In this document: one piece after another, positions 3,886-64,000 of the stretch
How positions within the stretch are numbered: the stretch's first letter is position 1
Layout: every line of letters begins with the position of its first letter
DNA from: an uncultured virus (IMG/VR IMGVR_UViG_3300023179_000063)
Taxonomy: Duplodnaviria > Heunggongvirae > Uroviricota > Caudoviricetes > Crassvirales
Length of the DNA stretch: 64,000 bases
IMG/VR virus record: IMGVR_UViG_3300023179_000063
Reading direction: 5' to 3' (one strand)
Notes under the pieces: model-generated
Seen by the model: the letters and a program-made list of their open reading frames with translations, nothing else
The model's database searches: none
Told to the model about the DNA's origin: nothing
Position numbers and translations under genes: made by a program

Positions 3886-4287
3886 TCATATATATAAATT
3901 ATATGGATAAACTAATTTATCAAAATCTTCTAAATAATATACTGTTCCTCCATTAAGTACAGTATCTACATTTGGATTATTTGTAAATAAATCAGCAAAT
4001 CCATTATCTTTATAATATTCATTTGCACAATCTAAAGCATTTTTTAGATTATTATATGAAATACAACTATGTGAACCATAACTATGAATTACAACTTTAT
4101 AGATATAACTATCAGGTATTATATCTCCAATATGTAATTTAATTTGTTCTTTTTCCCAATCATTTAAAGGTAAAGATAAATCTAATTCAACACTTATTAC
4201 TGATTTTGTTGTTTCATTATAGGCTGAAACAAATACTCGATTATCTATAAATAGATAAGAATTGCCATTTGGATGTTGTACTATCAT
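3886..4287 (-). CDS. Hypothetical protein
   Basis: 133-aa ORF, ATG with A-rich leader. Confidence 0.65.
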   Translation of the reverse strand: MIVQHPNGNSYLFIDNRVFVSAYNETTKSVISVELDLSLPLNDWEKEQIKLHIGDIIPDSYIYKVVIHSYGSHSCISYNNLKNALDCANEYYKDNGFADLFTNNPNVDTVLNGGTVYYLEDFDKLVYPYNLYI

Positions 4288-4592
4288 TTTGTTTAATATT
4301 TATTTAATTGTTAAATTATTCTCAGGTTGTCATAAAATTTACATAATAAAGGTTACACTATGTAGTCACCTATAATCTACAGCTTGTTTTACAACTAAAT
4401 CAGCAGTTGGCCTGCAAAGCAAGTTATATTGTCAAGAGTATGCCTCTCAAGACTCAACAGAATCTGGGTCTGTTCCAAGTTCACAATATAGTATTTCTAC
4501 TATGTACTGACTTTACAGTTATATTACATGCTAGTGAACTTTTACATTGTAATATAGTTTTGTCCTCAACATCTTGGAAAGAGTTAAGTTTT

Positions 4593-4727
4593 TTTATCCC
4601 TCTGCACTCAGTTGTAATCCACTAATCTTTAGCCACTATTGATAAGTTGGGCCAAGTACCATAATTTGTATATATGGCGGATTACAACTGCTCACCCTTG
4701 GGAAGTGAGTTATGGTGCATTAACAAA
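4593..4727 (-). ncRNA. Twister-like self-cleaving ribozyme (P1-type with a long P5 insertion)
   Basis: Minus strand: UUUGU-UAA-UGCA-CC-AUAA-CUCAC-UUCCCAAGG-GUGAG-[CAGUUGUAAUCC...GGAUUACAACUG]-AG-UGCA-GA-GGG-AUAAA. This gives P1, the L1 UAA, P2, P4, pseudoknots T1 (CCC/GGG) and T2 (CC/GG) and a 12-bp P5, in twister order. Confidence 0.75.
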
Positions 4728-4765
4728 TTTGGAAGCTTAAAGGTTTACCAACCTGAAATACATTA

Positions 4766-4978
4766 CTAAAATATGCTAGGAATAGCAATCCATTGTAAAG
4801 TAATTCCTTGATGTTCTTTAGAAACAATAACATATTGTATATTATCACCTCTTAATAACTTGTTAAAGTTTTTAGTAGTAATAAAATATGTTTCATAACT
4901 GTTATTAAAAGTGAAACAAACAGATGCTTTGTTAATGTGAACTAATTTGATTTCGTTTAAAGATAATGTTTTAAGCAT
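4766..4978 (-). CDS. Hypothetical protein
   Basis: 70-aa ORF directly upstream of the ribozyme. Confidence 0.6.
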   Translation of the reverse strand: MLKTLSLNEIKLVHINKASVCFTFNNSYETYFITTKNFNKLLRGDNIQYVIVSKEHQGITLQWIAIPSIF

Positions 4979-5192: not shown

Positions 5193-5222
5193 AAAAAAAT
5201 ACCAATAGTTTCCTATTGGTAT
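5193..5222 (-). terminator. Rho-independent terminator
   Basis: Minus strand ATACCAATAG-GAAA-CTATTGGTAT plus a T run, just after the stop at 5231. Confidence 0.85.
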
Positions 5223-5230
5223 AATTTTAA

Positions 5231-5542
5231 TTAAGCAATGATAAAGGCATTTTTGTACCTACCATCTACATTTACTCCTACTTTCACTACATCGTTTACA
5301 GACATTTTTTGTGCATATTCTTTTACATCAGTTAAAATAGTAGCATCAAAACATTTGCCTTCATAACTAACTGCGATACTGCAAATAGAATACTCTTTTA
5401 AAGGGTCTTTTTTACTTTTGATTTCCTTGACATTCACTTTGTTTCCTATGATTTTGCAATCATATTCCATTTTTTCAATAAAATTTGTTGGGACTGAGGC
5501 CTTAATTTGTGGCTTAGTAATTTCGATTAGTTCTAATGACAT
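5231..5542 (-). CDS. Hypothetical protein, first gene of the leftward unit (possibly OB-like)
   Basis: 103-aa beta-rich ORF with its own terminator. Confidence 0.65.
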   Translation of the reverse strand: MSLELIEITKPQIKASVPTNFIEKMEYDCKIIGNKVNVKEIKSKKDPLKEYSICSIAVSYEGKCFDATILTDVKEYAQKMSVNDVVKVGVNVDGRYKNAFIIA

Positions 5543-5859
5543 TTTTTTAAGTTTTTAAAGGTTAAAATAAATTAAATTTATACTTTGCCGCCTAAGAACC
5601 TACGGAACCAAGCTGCATCGCAGTTCCTCCAGGGGTTGTTATGGGGTAGCAACCATCAACACACTCATAAAATTTAAAAAAAATTTTAAAAAAAAATTAT
5701 ATGCAATAAAATATAAAATGATTGATTTAATTTAAATTATATGTGTTTAAATATAATTCAAACTATATAAGTTTACCTATCATATTTTAGACTATAAAGA
5801 AGGTATTTACTTAATGGATTATAAATCAGCATTTTAACTTGAGATAGTAATACAGCACT

Positions 5860-5939
5860 ATTACTTCAAGTACTACAAGCTATAGTACTGAAGTACTACA
5901 AGCTGCATTACTTGAAGTATCACAAGCTGTAGTACTGAA
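5860..5939. repeat. Iteron-like palindromic repeat array (candidate replication origin)
   Basis: AAGTACTACAAGCT at 5868 and 5891, AAGTATCACAAGCT at 5915 (23-24 bp period); a 33-bp unit at 5860 and 5907; the consensus AGTACTACA-AGC-TGTAGTACT is self-complementary. Confidence 0.8.
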
Positions 5940-6051
5940 AAAGTGTCCACTAATTTATCATGTAAAGTTTTTAAACAATTTATTCACAATATATTAAGTA
6001 TTATTTTTTATAATAATGAAAAATATTACTTGTAGTAATGAAATATAGGAT

Positions 6052-6059
6052 TATCTTTG
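6052..6059 (+). promoter_or_regulatory. Bacteroidota-type sigma-A -7 promoter element
   Basis: TAtcTTTG matches TAnnTTTG, 30 nt upstream of ATG 6090. Confidence 0.6.
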
Positions 6060-8236: not shown

Positions 8237-8483
8237 AATTGATACAGAAATATCATTAATAGATATGTGTAACAATACTATTCAAACTTGTAATATAATG
8301 GATAATGAAGAGTTAGCTATTTATAAAACAATTAAAGCTCATGCTGAAAGTATTCTTCTTAGAACTATTGAACAATTAGACAAGGTAACTAATCCTGTTT
8401 ATTACAATGAACATACTAGTTTTAGAAATGAAGATTTTGAAATACCTAAATCTAAAAGACCAAGAACTAATGGTACAATTTAA
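8199..8483 (+). CDS. Hypothetical protein
   Basis: 94-aa overlapping ORF. Confidence 0.55.
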   Translation: MIDKETFVKRLPKIDTEISLIDMCNNTIQTCNIMDNEELAIYKTIKAHAESILLRTIEQLDKVTNPVYYNEHTSFRNEDFEIPKSKRPRTNGTI

Positions 8484-9240
8484 AAGGTTATATTTTGATA
8501 TTGAAGTAAGTCCTAACATAGGATTCTTTTGGCAATCAGGTTATAAACTACAAATTCCTCATAACAATATTATAAAAGAAAGAGCTATAATATGTGTATG
8601 TTATAAATGGGAACATGAAAAAGAAGTACATTCTTTAGAATGGAAAAAAGGAGATGATAAGCAATTACTTATTAAATTTCTTAAAGTTCTTAATGAAGCT
8701 GATGAAGTAGTAGGTCAAAATTCTGATAACTTTGATATTAAATGGTTAAGAACTAGATGTTTATATCATAAAATAGAAATGATGCCTACATATTCTTCTG
8801 TTGATACCTATAAATTAGCTAAACAGTATTTTAGATTTAATTCTAACAAATTAGATTATATGTCTTCTTTTTTAGGATATGGAAATAAGATACATACTGA
8901 ATATGATCTTTGGAGAAAAATAGTTTTAGATAATGACGCTAAATCTATGCAATTAATGGTTAAGTATTGTAAAAAAGATGTTCTTTTAACTGAAAAAGTT
9001 CATCAAACAATGAAAAACTATACTAAACATAAAACTCATGTTGGAGTAGCTATGGGAGAAACTAAAATAGATTGCCCTGAATGTGGTTCAGATCATATTC
9101 AATCTAGAGGGTATGCTATAACAGCTGTAGGAACAAAATTTAAAAGATGTCAATGTCAAAATTGTGGCAAATGGTATCGAATTAATCTTAATGTTTATAA
9201 TAAAGCAATATCAATTAAAAATAATAAAGCAATAGTATGA
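8470..9240 (+). CDS. RNase H-like (DEDD) 3'-5' exonuclease with C-terminal Zn ribbon
   Basis: ExoI FDIEV, ExoII GQNSDNFD, ExoIII YCKKDV; CPECGS...CQNCG zinc ribbon; ATG 8470. Confidence 0.85.
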   Translation: MVQFKRLYFDIEVSPNIGFFWQSGYKLQIPHNNIIKERAIICVCYKWEHEKEVHSLEWKKGDDKQLLIKFLKVLNEADEVVGQNSDNFDIKWLRTRCLYHKIEMMPTYSSVDTYKLAKQYFRFNSNKLDYMSSFLGYGNKIHTEYDLWRKIVLDNDAKSMQLMVKYCKKDVLLTEKVHQTMKNYTKHKTHVGVAMGETKIDCPECGSDHIQSRGYAITAVGTKFKRCQCQNCGKWYRINLNVYNKAISIKNNKAIV

Positions 9241-12465: not shown

Positions 12466-14766
12466 ATGAGTGAAGTTCAATATATTTCTGATATACCAAA
12501 TCAGAACATAAGTTATGCTGCTAAAATAAAAGATGATTATGACTGGGGTAGGAAGACTATGCTTGCTTATATCCAAAGATCTTCATTTTCTACTAACACT
12601 TATAAAATGTGGTTAAAGAAACTATATGACTATTATAATGGACATATAGATATTGAAGACTACAAATTAGTAACAGCTCCTTTTGGTAAAGAAATTGAAG
12701 GAGATTGGGCTGATGTTAAAAACTATCCTATTATTAAACCTAAAGTAGATTTATTAAGAGGAGAATTTAGTAAAAGACCTAAAGACATGACAGTATATGT
12801 TGTTAACGATGATGTTAATAGCAAAATGCTAGAAGAATTAAATAAACAAATTAACGATAACCTTGAACAGCAATTTATAAATACTTTAAATGCTCAAGGT
12901 GTAGATACTGGTATTCCTTCTCAAGAAATACCTACTCCAGAATATATTAAAGAACAATTTGAATCTAGTTATAGAGATAAAAGAGCTATTAACGGTCAAC
13001 ATGCTATTAATTTTATTAGTCAATATAATAAATTAGATGAAATATTTGATGTTGCTTGGTTTGATTGGATGGCAACTGGTGAAGTATATAGTAAAAAAGG
13101 AATTGAACATAATGAAGTATTTTTAGAAGTTGTAAATCCTTTAGATATTGATTATGATAAAGATCCTGATTTACAGTTTATTGAAGATGGAGATTGGGTA
13201 GTAAGAAGAAAATATATGTTACCTTCTTCTATTATAGATATTTTCTATGATGATTTAACAATGGATGAAATAAATCAAATAGAAACTTTAGCTATTCAAG
13301 GTCCAGCTTTTTCAACTACATCACCTTTTCTTTATGATAGAACAGTTCCTTTTAAAGCTTATTCTAGATTAATAGAAGTTCTTCATGTAGAATGGAAAAG
13401 TAAAAAGAAGATTGGCATTGTAGATTTTGTAGATGAAATGGGACAACCTCAATCTTTAGAAGTTACTGAAGATTATACAAAAACAGAAGGGCAAACTCTT
13501 AAATGGTATTGGGTAAATGAAGTATGGGAAGGTTATAGAATAGGTACTACTTTGTATAAAAGAATTAGAGCTTTACAAAACCAAAGAAATTCTATAGATA
13601 ATCCTTCTAAATGTAAACTATCTTATAATGGTAGGGTATTTTCTAATAGAAATTCAAGAAATATATCAATGGTTACTTTAGGTATTCCATATCAAGTACT
13701 TTATAATGCTACTATGCACAGGTTAAAACTGGCTATGGCTAAAATGAAAGATGATATGGTTATTTTAGATCTTAATCTTAAACCTAAAAATTGGGATATA
13801 GATAAGTGGATGTTGATGGCTGATCAAACTTCTATTATGTTTGCTGATTATGCTAAAGAAGGAGTTAATAGAAATAATAATACTCAATCTAGATTACAAA
13901 TAGCATCTTCAACTATCCAAGCTTATATAGAATTACTTAGATTTATTAAACAAGAATGGGATGAAGTATGTGGTATTACTAAACAAAGAGAAGGTCAAAT
14001 AACTTCTTCTGAAACAGTAGGTGGAGTAGAAAGAGCTGTAGTTCAATCTTCTTTAATTACTGAAGTTTACTTTGCTTACTTTGATCAATTTAAAGAAAGA
14101 GAATATCAAGGATTAATTGATTGGTCTAAATTAGCTTGGATTAATGGTAAGAAAACTAGCTTTGTAATGCCTGAAACAGCTAAAACTATTTATATGGATA
14201 TAGATGGTATAGAACATTCTGAATCAGAATATGGAATATTTGTAGCTAAATCTAGTAAATTACAAGAAAAAATTAAAATGGTTCAGTCTATAGCTCAACC
14301 TTTAGCACAGAATGGTACACCAGGTTCAACTATTGTTGAACTACTTGAATCTGATAATCTTGCTGATATTAAGATGAAGTTAAGATCAGCTGAAGCTAAA
14401 ATGCAAGAATATTCTCAAATGAAAGAAAAAGCTCAACAAGAACATGAACAACAAGTAGTTCAAATGCAGAGTGAAATGGCAGATAAAAATCAACAATATG
14501 TTCTTGAGCAAATTGATAGAAAAGGTGAATGGGATATGAGAAAAACAGAACTTACTGCTTTAGGTATGGATGAAGGAGATGATAACACAGCTATTCAAAA
14601 AGCTATGATTGAGGCAGGTCTTAAAGAAAAAGAACTTCAAATTAAAAATAGAGAAATAGAACAAAAAGAAATTGAAGGTCAAAGAAAAGCTCAAACAGAA
14701 AAATATAAAGCAGATAAATCTTTACAAGTAGCAAAAGAAAATAAACAAAATGTCAAAAAAACATAA
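12466..14766 (+). CDS. Portal protein
   Basis: 766 aa after TerL; NYPIIKPKVDLLRGE, WYWVNEVWEGYRIG, GITKQREGQI and a coiled-coil C-terminus typical of crAss-like portals. Confidence 0.92.
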   Translation: MSEVQYISDIPNQNISYAAKIKDDYDWGRKTMLAYIQRSSFSTNTYKMWLKKLYDYYNGHIDIEDYKLVTAPFGKEIEGDWADVKNYPIIKPKVDLLRGEFSKRPKDMTVYVVNDDVNSKMLEELNKQINDNLEQQFINTLNAQGVDTGIPSQEIPTPEYIKEQFESSYRDKRAINGQHAINFISQYNKLDEIFDVAWFDWMATGEVYSKKGIEHNEVFLEVVNPLDIDYDKDPDLQFIEDGDWVVRRKYMLPSSIIDIFYDDLTMDEINQIETLAIQGPAFSTTSPFLYDRTVPFKAYSRLIEVLHVEWKSKKKIGIVDFVDEMGQPQSLEVTEDYTKTEGQTLKWYWVNEVWEGYRIGTTLYKRIRALQNQRNSIDNPSKCKLSYNGRVFSNRNSRNISMVTLGIPYQVLYNATMHRLKLAMAKMKDDMVILDLNLKPKNWDIDKWMLMADQTSIMFADYAKEGVNRNNNTQSRLQIASSTIQAYIELLRFIKQEWDEVCGITKQREGQITSSETVGGVERAVVQSSLITEVYFAYFDQFKEREYQGLIDWSKLAWINGKKTSFVMPETAKTIYMDIDGIEHSESEYGIFVAKSSKLQEKIKMVQSIAQPLAQNGTPGSTIVELLESDNLADIKMKLRSAEAKMQEYSQMKEKAQQEHEQQVVQMQSEMADKNQQYVLEQIDRKGEWDMRKTELTALGMDEGDDNTAIQKAMIEAGLKEKELQIKNREIEQKEIEGQRKAQTEKYKADKSLQVAKENKQNVKKT

Positions 14767-15562
14767 TAAAGTTTATATTTATACATTAAGTGATTGTAGA
14801 AATCCTGAAATAGTTAAATATGTAGGTAAAACTCAATATTTAACAGAAAGATTAAAACAACATCAAAGATCTGCTTTTAATAGATATAGTAAAGTTTCTT
14901 TATGGATAAAGAATATATTATTAGAAAAAAGTAATATTGTTTTAAATGTTATAGATGAAGTAGAAGAAAATAATTGGCAAAAAGCAGAAATAGCATATAT
15001 AAAATTATATAAAAGTTTTGGGGCAAATTTAGTAAATACTGCAATTGGAGGAAATGATACTTCTTATATGAGAAACTATAAGAAAAAAGGAAGAAAAAAT
15101 TTAAAACAATCTAAATTAATGATTGGTAATACTATATGGAAAAATGTAACTCAAAAAACAAGAATAATATCTGCTAAAAAAGCAAATATTACTAAGTCTA
15201 AAAATAAACATTTATATAAAATAAAAATATTATCAGAAAATACTAAAGAAAAAATAAAAAATGTTTTATTACAAAATAGTTTAAATTTGTCAAAAAGTGT
15301 AGTAGAAATAGATTATAATTTTAAAGTTATAAATAAATATAATAGTGTATCTGAAGCAGAAAGATTGCTAAATTTATCAGGAATTAATCAAGTATGTTTA
15401 AATAAAAGATGTTTTATAAAAAAAAGATTATTTATGTTTGAAAATTTTACAGAACAAGATAAAATAGATAAAGTAAATTTTATATTATCTAAAAAAAGAA
15501 CATTTAACATATATAATAAACAACTACAAAGTGATATAAATAATTACTCAATTAAAAAGTAG
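14750..15562 (+). CDS. Free-standing GIY-YIG homing endonuclease with NUMOD-type C-terminus
   Basis: VYIYTL...KYVGKT...RLKQH...E...YI...LVN..GG nuclease pattern; C-terminal YNSVSEAERLL...INQVC (NUMOD1/IENR-like); extreme A bias. Confidence 0.85.
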   Translation: MSKKHNKVYIYTLSDCRNPEIVKYVGKTQYLTERLKQHQRSAFNRYSKVSLWIKNILLEKSNIVLNVIDEVEENNWQKAEIAYIKLYKSFGANLVNTAIGGNDTSYMRNYKKKGRKNLKQSKLMIGNTIWKNVTQKTRIISAKKANITKSKNKHLYKIKILSENTKEKIKNVLLQNSLNLSKSVVEIDYNFKVINKYNSVSEAERLLNLSGINQVCLNKRCFIKKRLFMFENFTEQDKIDKVNFILSKKRTFNIYNKQLQSDINNYSIKK

Positions 15563-42119: not shown

Positions 42120-45100
42120 ATGGCTAAAAAAATTAAAACTCCAGTAAAAGAGTTAATAGATTATTATTTATCAAAAGATAATACTAATGAGTATTTAGGA
42201 AAACCAGTTACTGAAGCTCCTATTCCAAGATTAGGAGGACCTCAAGTAGAAGAAAATGAATGGTCTAGATATGATAAAAATTCTTATTTTAATGAAAATT
42301 TAGAAGAAAGAAGAAGTAGAAATCAAGATGGTTGGGATGCTTTTGGAATAGGAGCAGCCAGATTATTAGGACAAGGAATAACTAAAACAGCGGCTGGAGC
42401 AGGAATGGTAGCTGGTTTATTTGGAATTGATAATAGTAATGAAAAATATCTTAATGAAAATTCAAATTTTTCACAAAAAATAGCAGCCTGGATAGCAGGA
42501 GCCGCTGATAATGGATTAGCTGTTGTAGCTAATGAATTAGAAAAAAATTTAATTGATGCTACACCTTTATACAATAGTACAGCAGATAAAGAAGCTAATA
42601 AAGCCAGTATGTTTAATAATTTAACAGATGGTGATTTTTGGGCAGGAGAAGGAGTAGATGCTGCTGCATTTTTATTAAGTGCATATTTAACAGGTGGAGC
42701 TGCAACGGAAGCTAATATTGGAGGCAAAATAGCTTCTACTTTAGCTAAAGGAAAAATATTTGGTTCTAACATAAATAAAATAGCTAAATTAACAAATCAA
42801 GCTACTGCTACTGCTTTACAAACAGCTTCTGAATCTATGTTTGAAGCTAAAGATGTTAGAGATTCATTAAGAGAACAAAAAGCTCAAGAAAAATATAGTC
42901 TTCCTTTTGAAAGTTTAAATCCACAACAACAAAATGAAATTAATGTTGAAGTGGCTCCAGCTGCTGCAAAAACATTTGCTTTAAATACAGCAGCTTTAAT
43001 TGTTCCTAACTTTTTTGAAATGGGTCAATTAATGAAAAAAGCAGGTAGAACTGTAGGTACTGTTGAAGGGTTAGCTGCTAAAGGGTTATCTACTGTTGAA
43101 AAGGAAATAGGTGATAAAGTATTATGGAATACACTTCCTTTAGGTAAAGTAGGTAAAGCTCTTAATAAATTTGCTAATACTAAAATTGGAGCTGGGTTTA
43201 ATAATGCTTTAGTATCTATGGGTAGAGAAGGATTATATGAAGAAAATATTCAAACAGCTATTTCTAATTTAATGGAAAGTGATCCTGATGCTTCTATAAC
43301 AGATATAGGTAAAATAGCAAAAGGAATGTATAATAATTTCAGTTCTGAAGAAGGTAAAAAATCTATGTTATTAGGATCTTTAATAGGAGGTTTAGCAGGA
43401 GGTATATCAGGAGGAATAGAATATTCTAGGAATAAAGAAAGACAAAAAAATGCTATTACAGCAAGTGCTATATCAGGACATAATTTATTTAAAGCTAATA
43501 ATCCTTATGAAATAGAAACTTATGAAGAAATAGTTGATGGTAAACCTGTTAAAAAAACTAGATATAAATTAGATGAAAATGGTCAACCTATTATAGATAG
43601 TGCTAAAATGAAATCTATTATTGCCGATAAAGATCATTTAGAATATTTAGATGACATAGCAACTTTAGCTGAAGAAAAAGGAGATAATGTATTAGCTAAT
43701 ATAGCTAAAAGTCATTCTATGGCTAAATGGGTTAAATCTCATTTTGATACTGGAACAGAAAATTTATTACAAGATAAAATAGATTATTTAAAAGAACTAT
43801 CTGATCAAGAATTATTAGAACAAGGAATAGATCCAAATAAAAAAAACGAATATATAAGTAGATTAGAAAATAAAACTAAAGAATTTACAGCTTTAGCTAA
43901 TCAAATAGGAGGATCTTTATTATCAAGAGATAATAGTAAAGAAGGAGCTAAAAAATTTAATGCTAGAAAATCTGAATTATATAATATTGGAGTTACATTA
44001 TCTTCAGTTAGAGAAGAAAAAGCTAGGCTAGAAGAAGAAAAAGCTAGATTAAGTTCATCTCCTGAATCTACTATTCTTGCTGAAAAACAATTAGCTTATG
44101 CTGATTTAAAAATTAAAGAATTAACTGAAGCTGAAAATAAATTCAATGAAGAATTTAAAAAAATAGCTGATTTTAAAAATGGTCAAGATTATTTTAATAA
44201 TGATTATAAAAAATCTATTGTAGAAAAAATAGATGATATAGACCATGCTACTGTAACTTTAGATGAATTTAATGCTTATGAAAATTCTAAACTATATAAA
44301 TCTGAATTAGGATTAAAAGCAGATAATATAGAATCTGAATTTTTTGAAAAAGGAATAGATGAAAGATTGCAAAATGAACCACTAGAAAACATATTAGATG
44401 ATTTAGAATATTTAGATGCTTCTATTACTCAATCAACTAAAGATAAATTACAATCTATAGAAGAAGCTAAAACTCAAAATTTAGATAGTCTTGAATCTGC
44501 TATTATTGACATACAAAATGGAGAAGAACCTAATGCTCCTCAAGAAATAATAGATGAAGCTAATTCTTTTTTTGATGAAAATGGAGATATTGATTCAGAT
44601 AAATTAGAAGAATTTCAAAATGCTCAAAAAATAAATGCTTCTAATTTAAATAAAATTTCTAATTTACCTATAAAAGAAAAACAAGAAGTTACTAAAAAAA
44701 CAAGTAAAGAAAAAATATTAGAAAAATTTACTAAAACTATTAAAGGAATTACTTTTAATGCTGAAAATAATGATGATTACGATAATGTAAAAGAAATTGA
44801 AACAGCTATAAAAAAATTACAAAATTTTATAAAAGTTCTTAAAGAAAAAAATGATGAGGATTATAGAGATGTTATAACTACTTATGAAAATGATTTAATA
44901 CAATTAGAACAATTATTAATTAAGGTAAAAGAAAGACTTAATGATAAAGCTCTTCAACAAGAAAAATTCGTTCAAGAAAATTTAAATAATATGATTTCTT
45001 CATTTGGAATTAATGAAGAAGGGGCTATTATTAACAAAGAAATATATGATATAATTAAAGATATTTTAGGAGATGAAATTTTAAATCTAAAAGAAAAACT

Positions 45101-48100
45101 TAAAGATTTATCTCTATGGGGTAAAATAGGTTATTTAACTCAATTACAAGATATTGTAAAAAGTAAAATAACTGATGAACAATTAGAACAATTAAAAACT
45201 ATTCAAAAAAGTCTTTCAAATGAAGTTGTTTTTGAAATTAAAGAATATGTAAAAGAAACAGGACAATTATCTGATACACTTATAAATCTTATAACTAAAT
45301 TTTATAGTTCAAATCCTAAATTACTATTTATAGATGTTATAAAATTAATTCAAAAATATTCAGAAGATAAAAATAATCCTTTTAACATTTTTTTTAAAGA
45401 TTTAAACTTTAATAATTTATATAATAAATTACTAACAACTAATGTTGAGGTTAGGGGTTCGTTAGACAAAGCTAAATCTATTTTTAATACACATTATCAA
45501 GTTTTAAATTTATCTAATTTAATTTCTAGTATTGATAGTAAATATAATAGTGTTACAGAAATAGTTACAGAAAATGCTATTAATACTGAAAAAGATATTA
45601 TAACTCCTTCTAATCAACAATTGTTTGCTATTAGAGATTTAGTTAAATTCTTTTTTAGTAAATTAAATAATACTGGATTTGGTAATTTTGCTTATTTAAA
45701 AGGGTATGCTGGTACAGGAAAAACAAACATTGTATTAAAATGGTTTTGTAAATTATCAGGTTTAAAACAAGATGAAATTTTTGCAGTTGGACATAATAAA
45801 TACTCAAGTGAAGCTATTAATAAATCAATAGGTTCTCCTAAAATTAATACAATTGAAAATCTTTTAGAAGGATTAAGTACAAATTCTTTAAATAATATTA
45901 AAGTTCTTATTATAGATGAAATAAATGGATTAAGTAAAAAAGAATTGTTGAATTTAACTAATTTAGTTACTAATTATAATAATTTAAATAAAACATCTAT
46001 TAAAATTATAGGTTTAGGAGATCCTAATCAAATAACAGTTAATGAATCTTTTGCTCCTTTAGAAGAATTATTTGCTACTCCAGAAATGTCTAATATGACA
46101 ATGATAACACCTTTAACTATTCGTTATAGAAGTAATGTTCAAGCTGTTGTAGATGCTCAAGATATTTTTATGGATAATAGTAAAGATATGGTAAAAGAAG
46201 GAATTTACTTATTTACTAATTCAGATAATTCATTAGGTGCATCTGGAAGTATAGCTAGTGATAGTATTGAAAAAATATTAAAAACTAAAGATATAAATGA
46301 TGGTAAAACAAGAGCTGTAATAGTTCATCCATCTGATGTTGAAGAATGGAAAAATAAAAATTTAGGAATAGAAGTAGTTAGCTATGTTGATGTTCAAGGA
46401 AGAACTATTGATGAAGTATATGTAGCAATTAATAATAATAGATTTGATAATTCATTAGCTTTTAATAAAGCTATGTACACAGCAACATCAAGAGCAACAA
46501 ATTTTATATTTATCCAAGGTATTCCTTCTACAGTAGTTGTAGATAATAGTATTAATAATAATGCTCAAAAAAATACTGCTCAATTAGCTGAAGCTAAAAA
46601 AGAATTTGCTCAAAATAGAAAAGATGAAGGAGAACAATTAGATGTAGAAATTAAAATTGTACCTCCGCCTACAACTCCACCTCCCTCAGACCCGGATCCA
46701 GAAAAAGATGAAGAAATTATAGATGATGAAGAAGAGGAAGAAGAGGAAGAAGAACCTGAACCGACAGGTGGTGGATCACCTTTAAATCCAAATTCTATTA
46801 ATTTAAAATACCCTACTAATGAAGCTTTATCAGGTAATGCTTTTGAAAAAATAAAACCTGTTGAAGTTGGAGAAGCTATTGTTTTTATACCTGTTAAAAA
46901 TAAACAAGGATTTTCAAGTATAGGTGTATTTGTAGATAGAGGAAATGGTAAGTTTATTCAAGTAGCTTTATTATCTCAAGAAGAATTAAATAATCCTCCA
47001 GTAGATAAAATAGATATATATAATAAATTTAAAGAAAGTTTAAATAAAAATTATACAGAATTTGTAACTAAAGATGGATATTTAAATGTGGCTCCAGGAA
47101 GTAGTTTAAATATTTTAGCTCAAGGTAAATTAGAAAATGTATCTAAATTAAAATATTACTATAAAAAAATAGGAGAAACATTTGATTGGAAAACTTTATT
47201 TGCTAAATTTAGAGAAGGATTTTTTAATACATCAGAAAGTAATAATTCTAAAATAGAAAAATCTAAAATTAGAGTATTTACAACAGCTGAAATTCGTGCT
47301 TTAAACGGTCCTAAATTAAAACCAGGAGTACCTTATGCTGTTATTACTTCTCCTACTCAACAAGGTGGAGTTGTAAATAACGATCAATATATTGAATTAG
47401 AAAGAAAAAAATTAAATAAAGATACTCATGGATTTATGATAGCTCCTTTATTACAATTTTTAGATAAATATTTTCAATTTAAATCACAATTTCCTGAATT
47501 AACTACTAATGAAATAGCAGATTTAATTGAAGCTAAAGATGATTATTTAGGAACTTTACTATCTAAATTAAATTCTAAATATCAAACTTCATATATTTTT
47601 ACTAATGAACAAAAAGAATTAAAAAAAGAAATTGATGAATTACTATTTAAACCTTTAGAACCATCAGATTTAGAATTTAAAAAGAAGATGAAAGTAAAAA
47701 ATACTGTTTCTCCTTTTATGGTCCTTGATTCAGAAGGTAAACAAAAAGAAATTAACGGTACTATAGTAAAAGTTAACGATAAAACAGTTGAAGTAAAAGT
47801 TGAAGATAAAGTTATAGAAGTTAACAAAGAAGATTTACAACCTGTTATTAAAAGAAAATCAGGTAAAGCACAAAATATATTTAATTTAATTGCTCAAGGA
47901 AATAGAACTTCTAATGGATATATTATTAGAACTACTTATGTTGATAATGGAATACAAAAAAGTAGAGGTAAAAGTCTATTACCAAGAACTGAAGATGAAG
48001 ATCCTAATATTTTATTAGAAAAATTTAATAATTTAGATGTTAAAAAACAATCTAAAATTTTAAATAAATTTAAAGAAAATTATGGTAAAGAATTTAATCC

Positions 48101-51100
48101 TGATAGTTTTACAAAGCAAGACATAGTTAATTTATTAAAATTTGTAAATTATAGTATGAGTTATAATGAACTTTTAAATATATTAAAAATTCAAAATAAT
48201 GGAGATATTAGTGATTTAAAAGTTCCTATACCAATTAATTCTAAAATAGCTGATGGTATATCTACAAAAGAATTTGATTATTCAGAAAATTATATACCTA
48301 CTGATTTAGATAAATTATTATTTGAAGATAGGTTAGAAAAAATTACTCCTACTTCAATATCAGTAAGTATTGATGGAGAAGTTAAATCTAGTAATAATGC
48401 TTCTATTTCTTTTAATGATAATACGGCATCATCTTGGGAAGATGAAGAAGATGATGATGAACCATTAACTAGATTATTACTTAAATCAAATACTTCTAAA
48501 TTAGGTAAAAGATTAAAATCTTTAGATTTATTATCTTATTTACAATCTATTGATAAAACATTAACTGCTGAAGAAATCAAATTTGTTACAGAAGCTGAGT
48601 TATTAAAATTAACTGAAGGCAAAGAAGCTTGGGGATTGTTTAGAGATGGAATTATTTATTTGTCTGAAGATAATTTTGAAGCTTTTGAAAATGTTGGAAG
48701 ACATGAATTATTTCATAGAATTTTTAATATGATGTTAACTCCATCTCAACAAAAACTTGTTTACAATAAAGCTATTGAAGAATTTGGATTACCGTCAGAT
48801 ACTTCTTTAATAGAAATAGAAGAATTGTTAGCTAGAAAATATCAAGAATGGAGGCAAGGTTCTAAAATAAATTCTTTTTTTACTATTTTATTTAATAAAA
48901 TTAAAAAGTTTTTAGGTATGGCTGTAAATATTGTGCCTGATATAAATACTTTTTTTACAAATATTGAACAAGGACAATTTAATGAAGTTATAAATAATGT
49001 TGATGGTACATCACGTTCTTATAATGATATTAGAAAAGATTTTGGTACTGCTATAAATTTTAGAAGGGCTGAACAATATATAATACAAAAATTAAATAGT
49101 TATCAAAATAAATATTATAATGAAGATAATATTAATAAAGGTAAAATACCAGAAAGTCTTGAAAAAACTTTTAGTTTAATTTTTGAACGTATAAATAAAG
49201 ATATAGATAAACTTTTAGCTAAAACTGATTTAACTGTAGAAGAAAAAGAAGATTTAGAATTTTTAAGTATAATTAAAAATCCTAGAATTTATGAAAATTT
49301 AGTAAAGGATTTATTTGAAGGATTTGATCCAAGCATTATTAAAAGAAAAAAATCAATTAATACTTTAACTACAGATAATCAAGAAATTATATCTTCTGAA
49401 AGTTGGGGTAATGAAATAGATGATGGAGAATTAAAAGATCATCAAGCTAAATTAGCTCTTAAAGTAAAACAATTTTTATCTACTATTATAAATAATAAAA
49501 CTAAGAGTCAAGTATCTCCTGGATATGTATATACTGTTTGTTTAAAGTTATTAACTAATATACCTGTAGAAAATAAAGAAAAGTTTTTAAAGATTTTAAA
49601 TGACAGAGTAAAAGAAGATTATTCTGAAAGTAATTCTAATATTAAAGCAATTATAGAAAGAATAGAAAATTTAGCTATTTGGGCTTACATGACTAATTAT
49701 TTAAATAATCCTATTCCAACTACTACAATTTTTGATACTTTTAATAGTTTTAATAATAATGGAGAAATAATTAAAAGAGAAAAAGATGAAACTAATTTTA
49801 ATTTTTTTAGACGAATATCTGATAAATCAGGAATTGATTTAAAAATGTTAAGTGTACTCTACTTAAAATATGATGCTCAACAAAGTTTGATTTCATTGAC
49901 TGTTCAAACAGGAAGTTTATATGAACAAAATGTTTTTTTTGGAGAAAATGGTTATTCTGATGGAGAATATTTTCAAGCTTTTAAAAATGCTGTAAGAGAT
50001 AATGAAGTAGTTAATTCTAAAAATAATATTATATCGGCCTTATCTAAAATATTAGTTTCAACTGATGTACCTAAATTAATTAAAGATATTAATAAAATTA
50101 AAAAAGGAATTGAAGAAGAACAAAGAAATTTTATTATTGATAATTTACAAAGTACTTTTAATATTTTACTAAGTTCTGAAGTTAAATTAGATGCTAAAAA
50201 TACCTTAGAAGATATGTTAATAGTATTAAATCATTGGAATACTGTTAAAGTTAATGATAAAGCTGAATACTTTGAAAGAGAAGCTTTAGATCATATTTCA
50301 GGAGCTGTTACAAGATTAGCTAAATTAGAATTAACAGGAGAAACATCTTACAGAGCAGGTTCATATAGAAGAACTGATGGTAAAACAGCTTATTTACATA
50401 CTTTATCTAGTAATGCTATAAATATTTTACAATCATTTATAAATGAAAAATTATTTCCTAAAAATAGTTTATATCTTAATAATCCAATATATAAATTAAA
50501 TGTTTTTCAAACAGGTATTAATAAAATTTATAATTATGTAAATTTTGACGGTGTTGTTGATAAAGATAGAAACAAAGAAGCTATTAGATATAAAAGTGAA
50601 ACTGAAAAAGATTGGTTAGATAGAAACTTTAAATATTTTTTCTTATCTCATAATAAACAAACAAATGGAAAATATGTTCAACAATTTTTAACTATATCAA
50701 ATAAACCAAATATTGTAGGAGCTGAAATAAACTTTTTAGATTGGAATAAAATACAGGAATCTATTGAAACTATTTTAAAACAACAATCTTTAAGAAACTT
50801 TAAAGGAGTTAAATATAGACAAAATTTAAATGTTTTCGATTCAATACTTAAAAGAGATAGTAAATTATCTGATACTCAATATGCTTCAGAAATTATAAAA
50901 GCTATTAAAGGAAAAAATTTAAAATCATTAATTAGTACAGAAAACTATATAGCATTATCAAATTTAAATAGTGCTATAAAAAAATATAGTGATAAAAATA
51001 TTGGAATGATGGCTGAAACTAATTCTGTAGAAGAATTAAAAGATATAGCTACAAATGAATTATTGGCTCTATATTATGCTAACTTTTTTGTTAATTCTAA

Positions 51101-54100
51101 TCAATTAAATCAATTAGTAGCTGGAGATGAAAGTTTCTATAAAAATTCATTTGATGTCATTAAACGTATGTCTATAGTTTTTGCTAATGGATACAAAGGA
51201 TTTGTAGAAAACAGTTTTGGTTTACCTAAAGAATATAGAACTCTTGTAGCTAAAGATGTAGAAGGAATGTTAGGAGAAGACTATGTTAAATTTTTAAAAA
51301 TACATGGTGCTAAATATGATTTAACAGATGCACAAGGTTATATGACTCCTAAAAGAGCTGCTCAAATAAGAAAAGCTTATGGAGAATCTTTAAAACTAGG
51401 TAATGTATTAAAACCAGTACATTTTGAAATTGATGAAAATGGAATACCTAGAGCTGTAAAATATTCTTCTATAGAATTAACCGATGAACTATGTAAAATG
51501 TTTCCTAGATTAGCTCAAGTAAGAAAAATGTTAGAAGATAACAATATAGATGAAATGGTTTTTAAATCTGCTGTTAAAGTAGGATTACCTTTAGAATTAA
51601 CTGTTCCAAATGATGATGGAAGTTTACCAGAAATTAATCCTAATAGTATTTTAACTTTACAAAATAGTAGTTATAGAATACAGTCTAATCCTGAACATAA
51701 TGTAGATGAAGATGAAATTGCATATCCTACTCAATTAGGATATTTTGCTAATTTTAGTGGGGCTAATACTGAAGTTGCTAATAAAATGTTTGATGCTATG
51801 ACTAAATTAATGAATAATGGTTTATACGAATTATTAGGTAAATTAGGATTGAGAAAAAGATTTTTAGATGATGAAAGTATTAAATTAACTTTAGAAAGAG
51901 CTAGAAATTCTGTTAGAAAATTTTTAGTTAAAAAAGAAGTTGATAAACAATCAGAAAGACAAAATGCTTTTTTAAATAATCCTAAACTTGGTATCAATAC
52001 TCCATTTTTAGTTAAAAAAGCTATTACAGAATTAGCTGCTGGTTTTACTAAAGCTACTGTAGGAATTAAACTTCCTGGTTCTGGATTAGTATTACAATCT
52101 GCTTATGGTACAGCTACTTATATAAATGCTGAAGGAAAAGAAGTTACTTCAGAATTAAAATGGAGAGATAAAGATGGATGTGCAGAAGTAGTATTACCAG
52201 ATATGTGGAAAGGTAAATTTAAAATAGGAGATAGTATTTTATTTGATACAATGGTAGGATTCCGTATTCCAGCTACTGAACTACACTCAGCAGTTCCTTT
52301 AAAAGTAGTAGGTTTTTATCCTAATAATAAAAATGTAATTATTGCTCCTGCTCAAATTGTTTATTTCCACGGTTCCGATTATGACGTAGATAAATTATAT
52401 GTTATGAGGAGAGAAATTTCTAATAATACTGTTAAATTATCTGATGGAACTATATTACATAAAGAAGGAGATGTAGTAGGTTATAAAGGAAATGAAAAAA
52501 ATGAAAATTTTGAACAGGATTTAGTACAATTATTAGCTGAAACTCAAATTAAATTAGTTGAAGCTAAATTAAAAAAAGATTCTAATTTAAAAACTCTTAT
52601 TTCTGTTTATAAATCTTTAATTGAATTACAAAATCTTTATTATAAAAATGTAATAGTAGATTCTTTTTTTAGTATTACTACAAATAAAGTAAATGAAGAA
52701 TTAATGATGTCACCTATTTCAATGGAAAGATTTAAAGGAATGGGTAAAGAAAATGAAACAGCTTTTGATTTAGTAGCAAGATTAAATGGTTTTAATTTAA
52801 AAAAACCTAAAAGAAGTGATTTTGATACAAATGAACAATTTGAAATAGAACAAGATAAATGGATTGATGAAAGAAATAAAGTAATTTTTAAAGAAAGAAA
52901 TTTATATGATTTAGAAGATCAAATGTTAATGCACAAAGATAATTTTAGTGGTACTAAACTTACTGGTTCATTTGCAAATATGGCTAAAACTATTGCTTAT
53001 TTCTTTCAATCTACAACAGATAATAAATATCCTATATTAAAAAAAGAAAATCATATTACTATAAATGGTAAAACTTATGAAGGATTAGATTATTATGAAA
53101 ATAGTGAACCTATAATTGTTAATTATGATAAAGACGGAAATCCAGTTTATTCTAAACCTATTATAACAGAAACAATAGATTCGTTAGTAAATGCTGCTAT
53201 TGATAATGTTAAAGAACAAATACTTTCTAGTATTGGATTTACTAATAATACAGGTAGTATAGCTATCTCATTAATTTCTATGGGTATTCCTTTAAATGAT
53301 GTTGTTAGAATAATGGTTTCTCCAGCTGCTAAAAGTATAAATACTGCTAATGGATTTAAAAAAGGATATGATTTAACTTTATCACAAATAAATGATAAAT
53401 TAGCTACATTATTAAATTTTAAAGATTATTCAGAATTATCAGAAGAAACTAAAACTAATCTACTAAAAGAAGTTGAAAAAATTGATATTACATCTGATAT
53501 GTTAGAAAAGAATATTAATAAAAATATTCAAGAAATGAATAAACAAGAACTTTTAGAACAAAAAGCAATTTTATTAAAAATAATATCTAAAGGAGATGAT
53601 ATAGCTTCTAGTTTAGGAGATGGAGTAACAGCATTTGGAGTATTAAAAGGATTTGATATAACATTACATGGTATGCAAAATGTTTTAGATAGTTTTGATA
53701 ATATGTGGGATGATCAAACTAATACTAAAAATTCTAAATTTATATTTGAAAATGTTAATCCTATAAAACTTCCTCATATTAATAAAGCTTTTTATATTTT
53801 AAAAACATTAAAATCTAATATAGAACGATTATTTTTTGTAGAAAATAAAGCATTACAAAAACTATCTTTTAGTGTATTAGGAACTTCAGGAGTAAAAATA
53901 TGGGATAGAATAGAAGGAGAAACTGCTTTAAAAATAAGAGAAAATTTCATACATTATTTTATGACAGGTCTAAAATACACTACCCCAGAAGGATATGAAA
54001 TCAGTCATGATATGACTAATGAAGAAATGTATGAAATTGCTGGAAAAGAATATATAGGAAATGAAGCTTGGAATAAAAGATTTGTTGATCAAGTATTAAA

Positions 54101-62157: not shown

Positions 62158-64000
62158 TTATTTTTGCCAGTACGAATTTACGGAACAATCAACAATAACT
62201 GGAACTTCTTTTAAAACTTTTTTAGCTGCATTTACCATTAATTCGTCTAATTTAATTTTCCATTCAAATGCTTGATTTTCATGACATTCAGTCTGTATTT
62301 CATCATATACGGCTAATATAATTTTACAATTCCAATTATTTTTAAATATTTCTTCTTGTACATCTATTAAGGCTTGTTTTATAATATCTCCGTTTGTACC
62401 TTGTATAGGACTGTTTTTAGAAGCTCTTTCAATAGACCCTAATAATTTAAAATCATCAGTATCTACTGCAAATTCCCATTCTGGAAACCATCTTATCCTA
62501 CCATAAGGTAAAGCTGTTTTTATAAATCCTCTTTTCTTACCTAAATTACCTAATCCATTTAAGAATTTTTCTACTTTAGGTACTGCTGCAAAAAACTTAT
62601 TAATAATTTCTTTAGCTTGTTTTACAGAAATATCCATAGTGTCAGCTAATTTGTATTCTGACATACCATAAGCTAAACCAAAATTAATAGTTTTTTGTAC
62701 ATCTCTGTAAGTTACACCTTTTTTAAATGGAGTTTCTTTTTTTACATCTTCAATAGGTATATCAAATGTCATTGAACATAGAACAGAATGTAAATCTTGA
62801 CCTTCTTTAAAAGCATTTAACCAAACTTCATCTTTACTAAATTCAGCTATAATACGAAGCTCCATACCACTAAAATCACCACCTACTATTTTATAACCTG
62901 TTTCAGGAATAAAACAACTTCTAATAACTTTAGCTAAATCTCCTTTAGAAGGAATTTGATTTAAATTAGGTTCAGATACTGATATTCTACCAGTACTAAG
63001 AATTTGCCAGATATTAGCTCTAATTCTAGAATCTTCATCTACAAACTTTAAAAAGCCTTCACCAAATGAAGTTTTAAGTTTAGTAAATTTAGTGTAGGAT
63101 AATAAAGTTTTAATTAATGAATGTTTATTTTTAATTCTTTGAAGTTCTCTATCTCCAACTGATTCTAAAGTTGGTTCAATAGCTTTACATATATCTAACT
63201 TTTGTTGATTAGAAGACCAATTAATTTTAGATTCTTCTTCAAAATCAAACATTTTTAATTGAGTGTATTTAGGTCTAAATGAAATAAATTTATCATCAGT
63301 TTTAATAATGTTATCTAATTCATCTTCTAATTTAGTTGCTTCTAAATTAACTGTTTTAATAACTTCTTTCCATTTTAAAGTGTCTAATTTAACACCATTA
63401 AATTCCATTAAAGTAAATACTTTTACAACTTCATTTTCAAGATTTAAAACATTTATTAAATCTAATTCTAATAACTTAGTAATTTGAGCCATCATTATAT
63501 TTTCTAAATAAACAACATCATCTGCTGCATATTTAATAACTCTAGAATTTAAACCTACTTTATGAATTTCTCCTCTAACTGTTTTATCTAATTTAACATT
63601 ACAGTATTTTAAAGTTAATTCATCTAATCCTAAATTTCTAACATCTATACCAGTTGTTAAAATACATTCAGCTAAAAACGTATCATATATTTGCATTGAC
63701 CAAATATTAATACCATGTTTTAATAAGAATCTACCATCAAATTTAAAATTTTGTAAAAGAAACAATTTATTTGGGTTTTCAAAGTAAGTTGAAAATAACT
63801 TAATAGGAAATGAATCAGCTTCTATTACATATTGATTATTTTTATCTCCAAATTGGTAACAAAGAAGATCTCCTTTAATAGCACTAAAACCAGTAGTTTC
63901 TGTGTCAAATCCTATTATGTTATTTTCATCTAACCATTGATAAACTTCTGAAATATCTGTATCTTTTATATTTGGATTAGTAAAAAGTTGTTTATTTTTA
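62158..64000 (-). CDS. polA: DNA polymerase family A with 3'-5' exonuclease (5'-partial)
   Basis: Frame is open to the window edge: ExoI GFDTETTG, ExoII NFKFD, ExoIII YAADD; TGRIS..EPNLNQIP; motif A DFSGMELR; motif B R...KTINFGLAYG; motif C VYDEI. Confidence 0.93.
   Translation of the reverse strand, partial: KNKQLFTNPNIKDTDISEVYQWLDENNIIGFDTETTGFSAIKGDLLCYQFGDKNNQYVIEADSFPIKLFSTYFENPNKLFLLQNFKFDGRFLLKHGINIWSMQIYDTFLAECILTTGIDVRNLGLDELTLKYCNVKLDKTVRGEIHKVGLNSRVIKYAADDVVYLENIMMAQITKLLELDLINVLNLENEVVKVFTLMEFNGVKLDTLKWKEVIKTVNLEATKLEDELDNIIKTDDKFISFRPKYTQLKMFDFEEESKINWSSNQQKLDICKAIEPTLESVGDRELQRIKNKHSLIKTLLSYTKFTKLKTSFGEGFLKFVDEDSRIRANIWQILSTGRISVSEPNLNQIPSKGDLAKVIRSCFIPETGYKIVGGDFSGMELRIIAEFSKDEVWLNAFKEGQDLHSVLCSMTFDIPIEDVKKETPFKKGVTYRDVQKTINFGLAYGMSEYKLADTMDISVKQAKEIINKFFAAVPKVEKFLNGLGNLGKKRGFIKTALPYGRIRWFPEWEFAVDTDDFKLLGSIERASKNSPIQGTNGDIIKQALIDVQEEIFKNNWNCKIILAVYDEIQTECHENQAFEWKIKLDELMVNAAKKVLKEVPVIVDCSVNSYWQK

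Follow-up and report, generated by a model that had tools for sequence, protein, structure and literature searches.

Does the short gene-free interval at positions 4593 to 4727 encode an RNA that cuts itself? It lies in a window of 64,000 nucleotides, the whole stretch of DNA analysed here, which is part of a crAss-like phage (ORFs of 4306, 1978, 1657 and 1578 aa; G+C content about 26%). PHROG matches identified a terminase, a portal and a major head protein, and the best relatives of the terminase, at 38% identity or less, belong to crAss-like phages of Bacteroides, Flavobacterium and Cellulophaga. Near-complete related contigs measure 96-117 kb and one of them has terminal repeats. The interval is found inside a leftward block of small ORFs, about 0.8-1.3 kb from a divergent region (5543-6056). 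ORF 4766..4978 (minus strand) lies upstream, the next minus-strand ORF begins at 4287, and the flanking ORFs, all on the strand of the element and presumed to be early genes in the first-pass annotation described next, matched no PHROG or Pfam family.

A first-pass annotation had listed the parts of a twister ribozyme on the minus strand. On reading this strand, each of its coordinates proved correct: the 135 bases from 4727 to 4593 hold the full set of twister elements, in order. The data described below indicate that this RNA is probably a twister-class ribozyme of type P1 whose P5 arm is enlarged and whose self-cleavage is predicted.

Anatomy of the minus-strand RNA

The features are given in the 5′ to 3′ direction of the RNA.

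4741..4754, minus strand: weak hairpin AGGUU-GGUA-AACCU, 13 nt upstream of P1
4723..4727, minus strand: P1 5′ strand UUUGU, pairs with AUAAA (4597-4593)
4720..4722, minus strand: L1 U-A-A, with the predicted scissile bond U4722/A4721 of the twister consensus
4715..4719, minus strand: P2 5′ strand UGCAC; the first-pass annotation assigned the final C (4715) to T2
4714, minus strand: T2 C, partner G4697 of L4
Between C4714 and P4, minus strand: 4-nt linker
4705..4709, minus strand: P4 5′ strand CUCAC, pairs with GUGAG
4696..4704, minus strand: L4 UUCCCAAGG, 9 nt
4700-4702, minus strand: T1 5′ strand CCC, within L4, complementary to GGG 4600-4598
4696-4697, minus strand: T2 3′ strand GG, within L4
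4691..4695, minus strand: P4 3′ strand GUGAG
4679..4690, minus strand: P5 5′ strand CAGUUGUAAUCC, perfect 12-bp stem with 4620-4609
4621..4678, minus strand: P5 insert ('cargo'), 58 nt, two hairpins in the MFE fold
4609..4620, minus strand: P5 3′ strand GGAUUACAACUG
4608, minus strand: A, between the P5 3′ strand and P2′
4603..4607, minus strand: P2 3′ strand GUGCA
4601..4602, minus strand: conserved G4602-A4601 preceding T1; by position, the G is the twister catalytic guanine
4598..4600, minus strand: T1 3′ strand GGG
4593..4597, minus strand: P1 3′ strand AUAAA

The minimum free energy fold recovers P1, P2, P4 and P5 with a z score of -3.94, and none of 200 shuffled sequences folded as well. 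P5 had been described as a perfect 12-bp stem carrying extra sequence, and indeed 4690-4679 pairs with 4620-4609 around 58 nt. The claim that L4 is one nucleotide longer than in canonical twisters also stood: it has 9 nt here and 8 nt in the rice twister, whose P4/L4 reads CCGGTCCCAAGCCCGG (PMC11662667, available part). Cleavage had been placed about 45 nt after the stop of the upstream ORF, and this stop was found 44 nt before U4722. The position of the cut, U4722|A4721, is predicted from the twister consensus in the available text of PMC5408937, and a catalytic role of G4602 is predicted from the same text and from that of PMC6154101. The weak hairpin at 4741..4754 may be a P0-like or a 3′-end hairpin, an uncertain assignment; the 45 nt upstream of the element have a minimum free energy of just -4.5 kcal/mol.

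Relatives of the element and covariation of its helices and pseudoknots

The element is present once in the window. At least 120 phage contigs of IMG/VR contain its exact P4-L4-P4′ 19-mer. Among the matches listed, the 3′ core followed at no more than 500 nt in 111 of 120 loci, which represent 100 distinct elements; the remaining nine listed loci corresponded to contig ends or indels. The conserved core reads UAAUGCACCA-(2-3 nt)-CUCAC-UUCCCAAGG-GUGAG-CAGUUGUAAU...variable...AUUACAACUG-AGUGCA-GA-GGG and is near-identical among otherwise unrelated contigs. The L4 9-mer by itself is not enriched (6 matches with one mismatch or less versus 6.4 expected). Because the element is conserved in at least 120 viral contigs and covaries as described below, it lies far beyond chance. 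No match to 4250-4800 was obtained by blastn against 50,697 GenBank phage records. In prokaryote genomes, taken one per species, the 19-mer occurred in six MAG contigs, five with the full element; the sixth, an Acidobacteriaceae chromosome contig, had the 19-mer only. No description of this phage family was found in the literature searched; supplements such as the descriptors of PMC11662667 could bear on earlier sightings of such variants.

Covariation was evaluated on two alignments. In a MAFFT alignment of 58 elements, P4 and T1 were invariant because the search pattern had fixed both, and changes on both sides were observed for 6 of 6 pairs of P1, 2 of 5 of P2 and 9 of 12 of P5. A covariance model (R1) was then built from the family with T1 excluded. 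It found additional divergent copies adjoining the main ones, in which P4 is compensated throughout: UCAGC/GCUGA, CCUGU/ACAGG, CUUAG/CUAAG and CCUGA/UCAGG. The main set is a model alignment of 111 rows that pools pattern-selected sets; 102 rows are distinct and, the rows being related, all counts given below are numbers of sequences and not of independent events.

Over the whole structure, 90.2% of the cells were paired in the 102 distinct sequences versus 77.3% after shuffling (0 of 500 shuffles as high), and 27-45% in slid registers. Both sides change in 28 of 32 pairs. All five pairs covary in P2 (99.2% of cells paired) and in P4 (98.8%), as do nine of the twelve P5 pairs, the basal 4 bp of P5 being near-invariant. 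All six P1 pairs covary as well, with 69.6% of cells paired; contiguous pairing in P1 averages 2.74 bp versus 1.25 ± 0.11 bp with shuffled partners, and 46 of 95 members have a weak P1 (0-2 contiguous bp). G-U pairs are common, as illustrated by the U-G at the first P1 pair in 32 sequences. Their frequency fixes the strand and favours RNA over DNA. Judged by comparative analysis, these data show that P1, P2, P4 and P5 form and that the key unpaired twister bases, considered below, are conserved.

T1 was evaluated by scans of IMG/VR using L4 sequences with one C of the CCC changed. The scans were anchored on L4 and the P5 base, and the 3′ partner was left free. To count as a family member, a hit had to have at least 4 bp in P4 and to include the 3′ P5 strand; with chance matches removed, 1 of 22, 28 of 53 and 24 of 48 hits were kept from the three scans. 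L4 variant UUCACAAGG was accompanied by GAGUG in 27 of 27 members, and 20 of the 23 members with UUCCAAAGG had GAUGG, the other three having GCUGG, GAGGG and GAAGG. The single member with UUGCCAAGG had GAGGC, and a neighbouring copy combines UUUCCAAGG with GAGGA. In the 102 distinct rows, the first T1 pair is C-G in 92, G-C in 1, U-A in 1 and U-G in 1; the second is C-G in 70, A-U in 24 and U-G in 1; the third is C-G in 72, A-U in 18, U-A in 1 and unpaired in 3. T1 thus consists of three Watson-Crick pairs, all covarying, with 98.9% of cells paired. Since T1 is absent from model R1, these counts are not fitted to it. On this covariation, L4 is shown to pair with the GGG following the G-A, forming pseudoknot T1. 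The twister fold and the key base positions proposed in the first-pass annotation are therefore borne out by the covariation of the relatives, T1 included.

The situation of T2 is different. The pair C4714-G4697 is constant (94 of 95 cells) and, since it never varies, it is uninformative on T2 either way; when the first G of the L4 GG was changed in a further IMG/VR scan, none of the 22 hits was a family member. The preceding base, C4715, can be compared with two partners. With its L4 partner the combinations are C-G (66), U-G (26) and U-A (3), while with G4607, as a fifth P2 pair, they are C-G (69), U-A (26) and U-G (3), a much clearer covariation. From these counts, C4715 appears to covary mainly with G4607 as a fifth P2 pair that competes with the first T2 pair, and the two pairings may alternate. 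The reading of T2 as CC/GG through an unusual compensatory change accordingly finds no firm support: the first C covaries mainly with G4607, and a CC is within the norm because the 5′ strand of T2 is 'NC' in known twisters, according to the available part of PMC11662667.

Comparison with known self-cleaving RNAs and predicted cleavage

In the published twister consensus (available parts of PMC5408937 and PMC6154101), an adenine is highly conserved and a uridine less so, a guanine is conserved as well, and an A-A contact supplements T1; the conservation found here agrees with that description. In the 102 distinct rows, the base 5′ of the predicted cut is U in 94, C in 4 and A in 3, and each of the two following positions is A in 98. 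The base preceding T1 is G in 95 rows and the next one A in 97. In L4, the A-A is kept in 99 and 98 rows and the G in 98. Overall, the cleavage-site A, the G-A and the L4 A-A are retained in 93-97% of the relatives. Rows with deviant key bases are mostly truncated or degenerate second copies, and a few copies have changed catalytic bases (the G has become A in L021 and U in L265, for example).

The check proposed at first, a search with the Rfam twister P1, P3 and P5 models, turned out negative: none of them scores the element, even at E≤10. Rfam 15 gave no hit on the window at gathering thresholds. At E≤10, the twister models returned nothing on window 4500-4800, on a copy with a 39-nt P5 region or on the natural 74-nt minimal copy (L125:5014-5087), and RF03160, a model of 68 positions with a gathering score of 67.2 bits, matched none of five contigs. 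The miss is likely due to the missing P3, the obligatory P5, the extra L4 base and the different P4 closing pair. P3 is present in 78% of known twisters and P5 in 1% (available part of PMC6154101). The element has the twister fold and we class it as twister-like; by the Rfam criterion it is not a member.

The resemblance to twister type P1 (RF03160) extends over the complete order of elements: P1, U|AA, P2, T2 strand, P4, L4 (U-CCC-AA-G-N), P4′, P2′, G-A, T1 strand and P1′, as given in the available parts of PMC5408937, PMC6154101 and PMC11662667. Common to both are a T1 of three Watson-Crick pairs, the conserved adenine 3′ of the scissile bond with a less conserved U 5′ of it, and the conserved guanine at the P2 base. 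Twisters also have an optional P5 and an optional upstream hairpin, P0, which is resembled by a hairpin directly before P1 that is enriched in the phage family: 40 of 91 relatives have one of -8 kcal/mol or below upstream, versus 19 of 91 on the downstream side and 9 of 91 for shuffled sequences. On the other hand, an additional U at its 5′ end brings the L4 of the phage element to 9 nt, the first T2 base is engaged in a fifth, covarying P2 pair, and the family always has a P5 and no P3, against the frequencies of 1% and 78% quoted above from PMC6154101. Its P5 combines a near-invariant base with an interchangeable structured insert of 21-182 nt, its stem sequences are unusually conserved, and its hosts are crAss-like phages. 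We conclude that the element is probably a variant of the twister class and one member of a large family, well conserved in sequence, that occurs in uncultured crAss-like phages and is absent from the Rfam models.

Two other classes were compared. Twister-sister has a P4 loop sequence and an overall outline that resemble twister and, as described in the available part of PMC6154101, it is without the double-pseudoknot fold. This identity was rejected, since T1 is present and covaries here and no Rfam twister-sister hit was obtained. Hatchet (RF02678), a self-cleaving RNA with a different fold and consensus, occurs in the same phage regions. Among 50 related contigs, five, of which two represent the same region, had a Hatchet above the Rfam cut-off, 0.9-1.4 kb upstream of the element and on its strand (L008:399-533 (+), G026:34706-34842, G017:2447-2609 and G006/G027:30306-30438; 78-82 bits for a cut-off of 51). 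In the window itself, Rfam detected no Hatchet at gathering thresholds. The association agrees with the known clustering of ribozyme classes (PMC5408937, available part). Hammerhead_II was found in 0 of 50 contigs, a result of little weight because the control genomes were equally silent.

If the element behaves as a twister, its fold would juxtapose A4721 and G4602 and allow self-cleavage between U4722 and A4721. The upstream message would be freed with a 2′,3′-cyclic phosphate, and the downstream RNA would start with a 5′-OH followed by the compact ribozyme and the P5 insert; this 5′-OH may confer the resistance to decay that the first-pass annotation proposed. Processing of the leftward small-gene transcript would then be its most likely role. 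About 94% of tested natural twisters cleave, and L4 length and the presence of P5 had little effect on the tested twisters (both from the available part of PMC11662667).

The P5 arm, alternative readings and genomic setting

In P5, conservation drops outward from the basal 4 bp. The insert beyond the 10-bp P5 base ranges from 21 to 182 nt (median 64.5), and 150 distinct elements fall into 119 insert clusters. When two elements share an insert type, both flanks differ in 35 of 43 pairs; when they share the upstream flank, the insert differs in 56 of 63 pairs, and even among the 8 pairs that agree in both flanks, 7 have different inserts. The insert type of the window occurs in four other contexts (L338/L348, L345, L355), where a G-C to A-U change preserves one hairpin and the P5 extension differs by two complementary base pairs. 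On the strength of these pair counts and compensatory changes, the P5 inserts are structured modules that are under selection and are exchanged. A Rfam gathering scan for known RNA families in the long inserts of 20 loci found solely a separate Hatchet ribozyme. An antisense target of the window's insert inside the window was considered and rejected, the best match having E = 0.16.

Two kinds of relatives differ markedly in this arm. The minimal copy L125:5014-5087 (+), of 74 nt, has the full core with P4 CUUAG/CUAAG and a P5 consisting of CAGU-AACU-ACUG. 'Zipped' neighbouring copies (L069:2531-2681, L069:1997-2215, L069:1637-1760 and L010:369-447, minus strand) keep P4, P5 and the 3′ strand, and a tetraloop replaces L4. 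In these copies the 5′ strand and GUGCAGAGGG form one continuous helix that closes L1. All share the P5 base and some the same P4, and one folds with z = -5.1. One complete phage of 110.5 kb (L069) has four elements within about 1.3 kb. The 'zipped' relatives can form neither T1 nor an open cleavage site.

These observations allow a broader proposal, which we put forward tentatively and regard as possible rather than likely: the twister core would be a universal 'frame' through which crAss-like phages express interchangeable structured P5 modules. Self-cleavage would trim the 5′ end and turn each module into a compact 5′-OH RNA; the modules might act in trans, for instance as host-directed decoys or regulators, and phages would exchange them by recombining across the invariant core. 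This proposal is compatible with the 119 insert types found in 150 elements, the insert-flank swaps, the compensated hairpins and the 'zipped' frames with the same P5 base.

The same features bear on a reading in which the RNA is twister-shaped and cleavage is not its selected role. The frame would hold or stabilise the P5 insert, as in a small RNA or a protein-binding RNA, and cleavage would be slow or incidental. The sequence of the P5 base is indeed conserved beyond the needs of a plain stem, its basal 4 bp being near-invariant; the inserts are structured and swapped as modules, and the Rfam twister models fail. Such a role would leave unexplained why unpaired bases serving catalysis only (the A 3′ of the cut, the G-A and the L4 A-A) are kept in 93-97% of the relatives, why compensatory changes maintain T1, and why the minimal copy, with almost no insert, retains the whole core; the Hatchet neighbour in 5 of 50 contigs also argues for cleavage. 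The 'zipped' relatives, which retain P4 and P5 without L1, L4 and T1, are the main reason for granting this reading some weight, since the function that they share with the element may not need cleavage. We nevertheless consider it improbable.

A DNA-level element was also weighed, the core being a recombination or cassette-exchange site, folded as hairpin DNA like integron attC, and the variable middle its cargo. Insert changes in 7 of 8 same-flank pairs, the recurrence of one insert amid unrelated flanks (35 of 43 pairs) and the near-identity of the core could all be read in this way, but ordinary homologous recombination across a conserved core can explain the exchange. The frequent G-U pairs are strand-specific and would be A-C mismatches on the other strand, a covarying loop-to-loop pseudoknot is meaningless for duplex DNA, and recombinases do not recur among the neighbours, the 59 scanned downstream genes being diverse. 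We hold this explanation to be very unlikely. Finally, chance resemblance in an AT-rich spacer, to which the chance frequency of the L4 9-mer and the lack of an Rfam hit might point, is refuted by the conservation in at least 120 contigs, the unbiased T1 scans and the covariation of all helices and T1, together with the z score of -3.94.

The preferred reading remains that of a self-cleaving, twister-class RNA. Should the element cleave, the standard catalogue would be blind to an entire branch of twisters, common in uncultured crAss-like phages and always with a large P5, and ribozyme surveys of viral data would therefore undercount twisters. The natural covariants of three T1 and five P4 pairs, the minimal form and the 'zipped' relatives provide a ready-made mutational series. 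The available part of a review still calls the biological role of twisters speculative (PMC5408937), and the swappable structured P5 inserts raise a testable question on the use of self-cleaving ribozymes to phages.

The genes around the relatives were compared. No recurrent neighbour gene emerged from the 59 scanned downstream proteins; phrog_850 ('RNA-binding protein') lies directly downstream in 3 of 59 loci (L030:838-2121, L063:1333-2283 and L076:1807-3018), and the two of these genes scanned against Pfam (L030 and L076) have DUF2828 and DUF7788. In a crude ORF census, 70 of 101 cases had their nearest downstream ORF on the strand of the element, at a median distance of 71 nt; upstream, the picture was ambiguous, with 47 on the same strand and 54 on the opposite one. 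A link with tRNA genes was rejected: the window has no tRNA, one lies within 1.5 kb in 5 of 60 loci, and a suspected tRNA after L036 was not borne out. A scan for sigma-70 promoters was uninformative (18 sites versus 19.7 expected).

Several other features of the window were recorded. Directly after ORF 5231..5542, positions 5199-5222 (minus strand) form a terminator-like hairpin of 10 bp with a T run after it, which would place the twister in the next transcription unit or on a read-through transcript. About 10 nt past P1′, after an A-rich spacer, another hairpin occupies 4553-4581 (minus strand; CUUAACUCUU..AAGAUGUUGAG); it is common to the downstream flanks of L034 and L112, which carry different P5 inserts. 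In the gene-free region 5543-6056, three tandem copies of a partly palindromic unit of 22-23 nt, AAGTACTACAAGCTATAGTACT, are located at 5868-5936 and could be an operator, origin or promoter array. The DNA polymerase is apparently split into exonuclease-subunit and polymerase genes on opposite strands, at 8407-9237 (+) and 62158-63762 (-). The ORF of 4306 aa at 42120-55037 (+) is followed by that of 1978 aa, neither having a PHROG match. Directly after the portal gene, ORF 14750-15559 (+) gave a weak match to GIY-YIG homing endonucleases (E = 8e-7).
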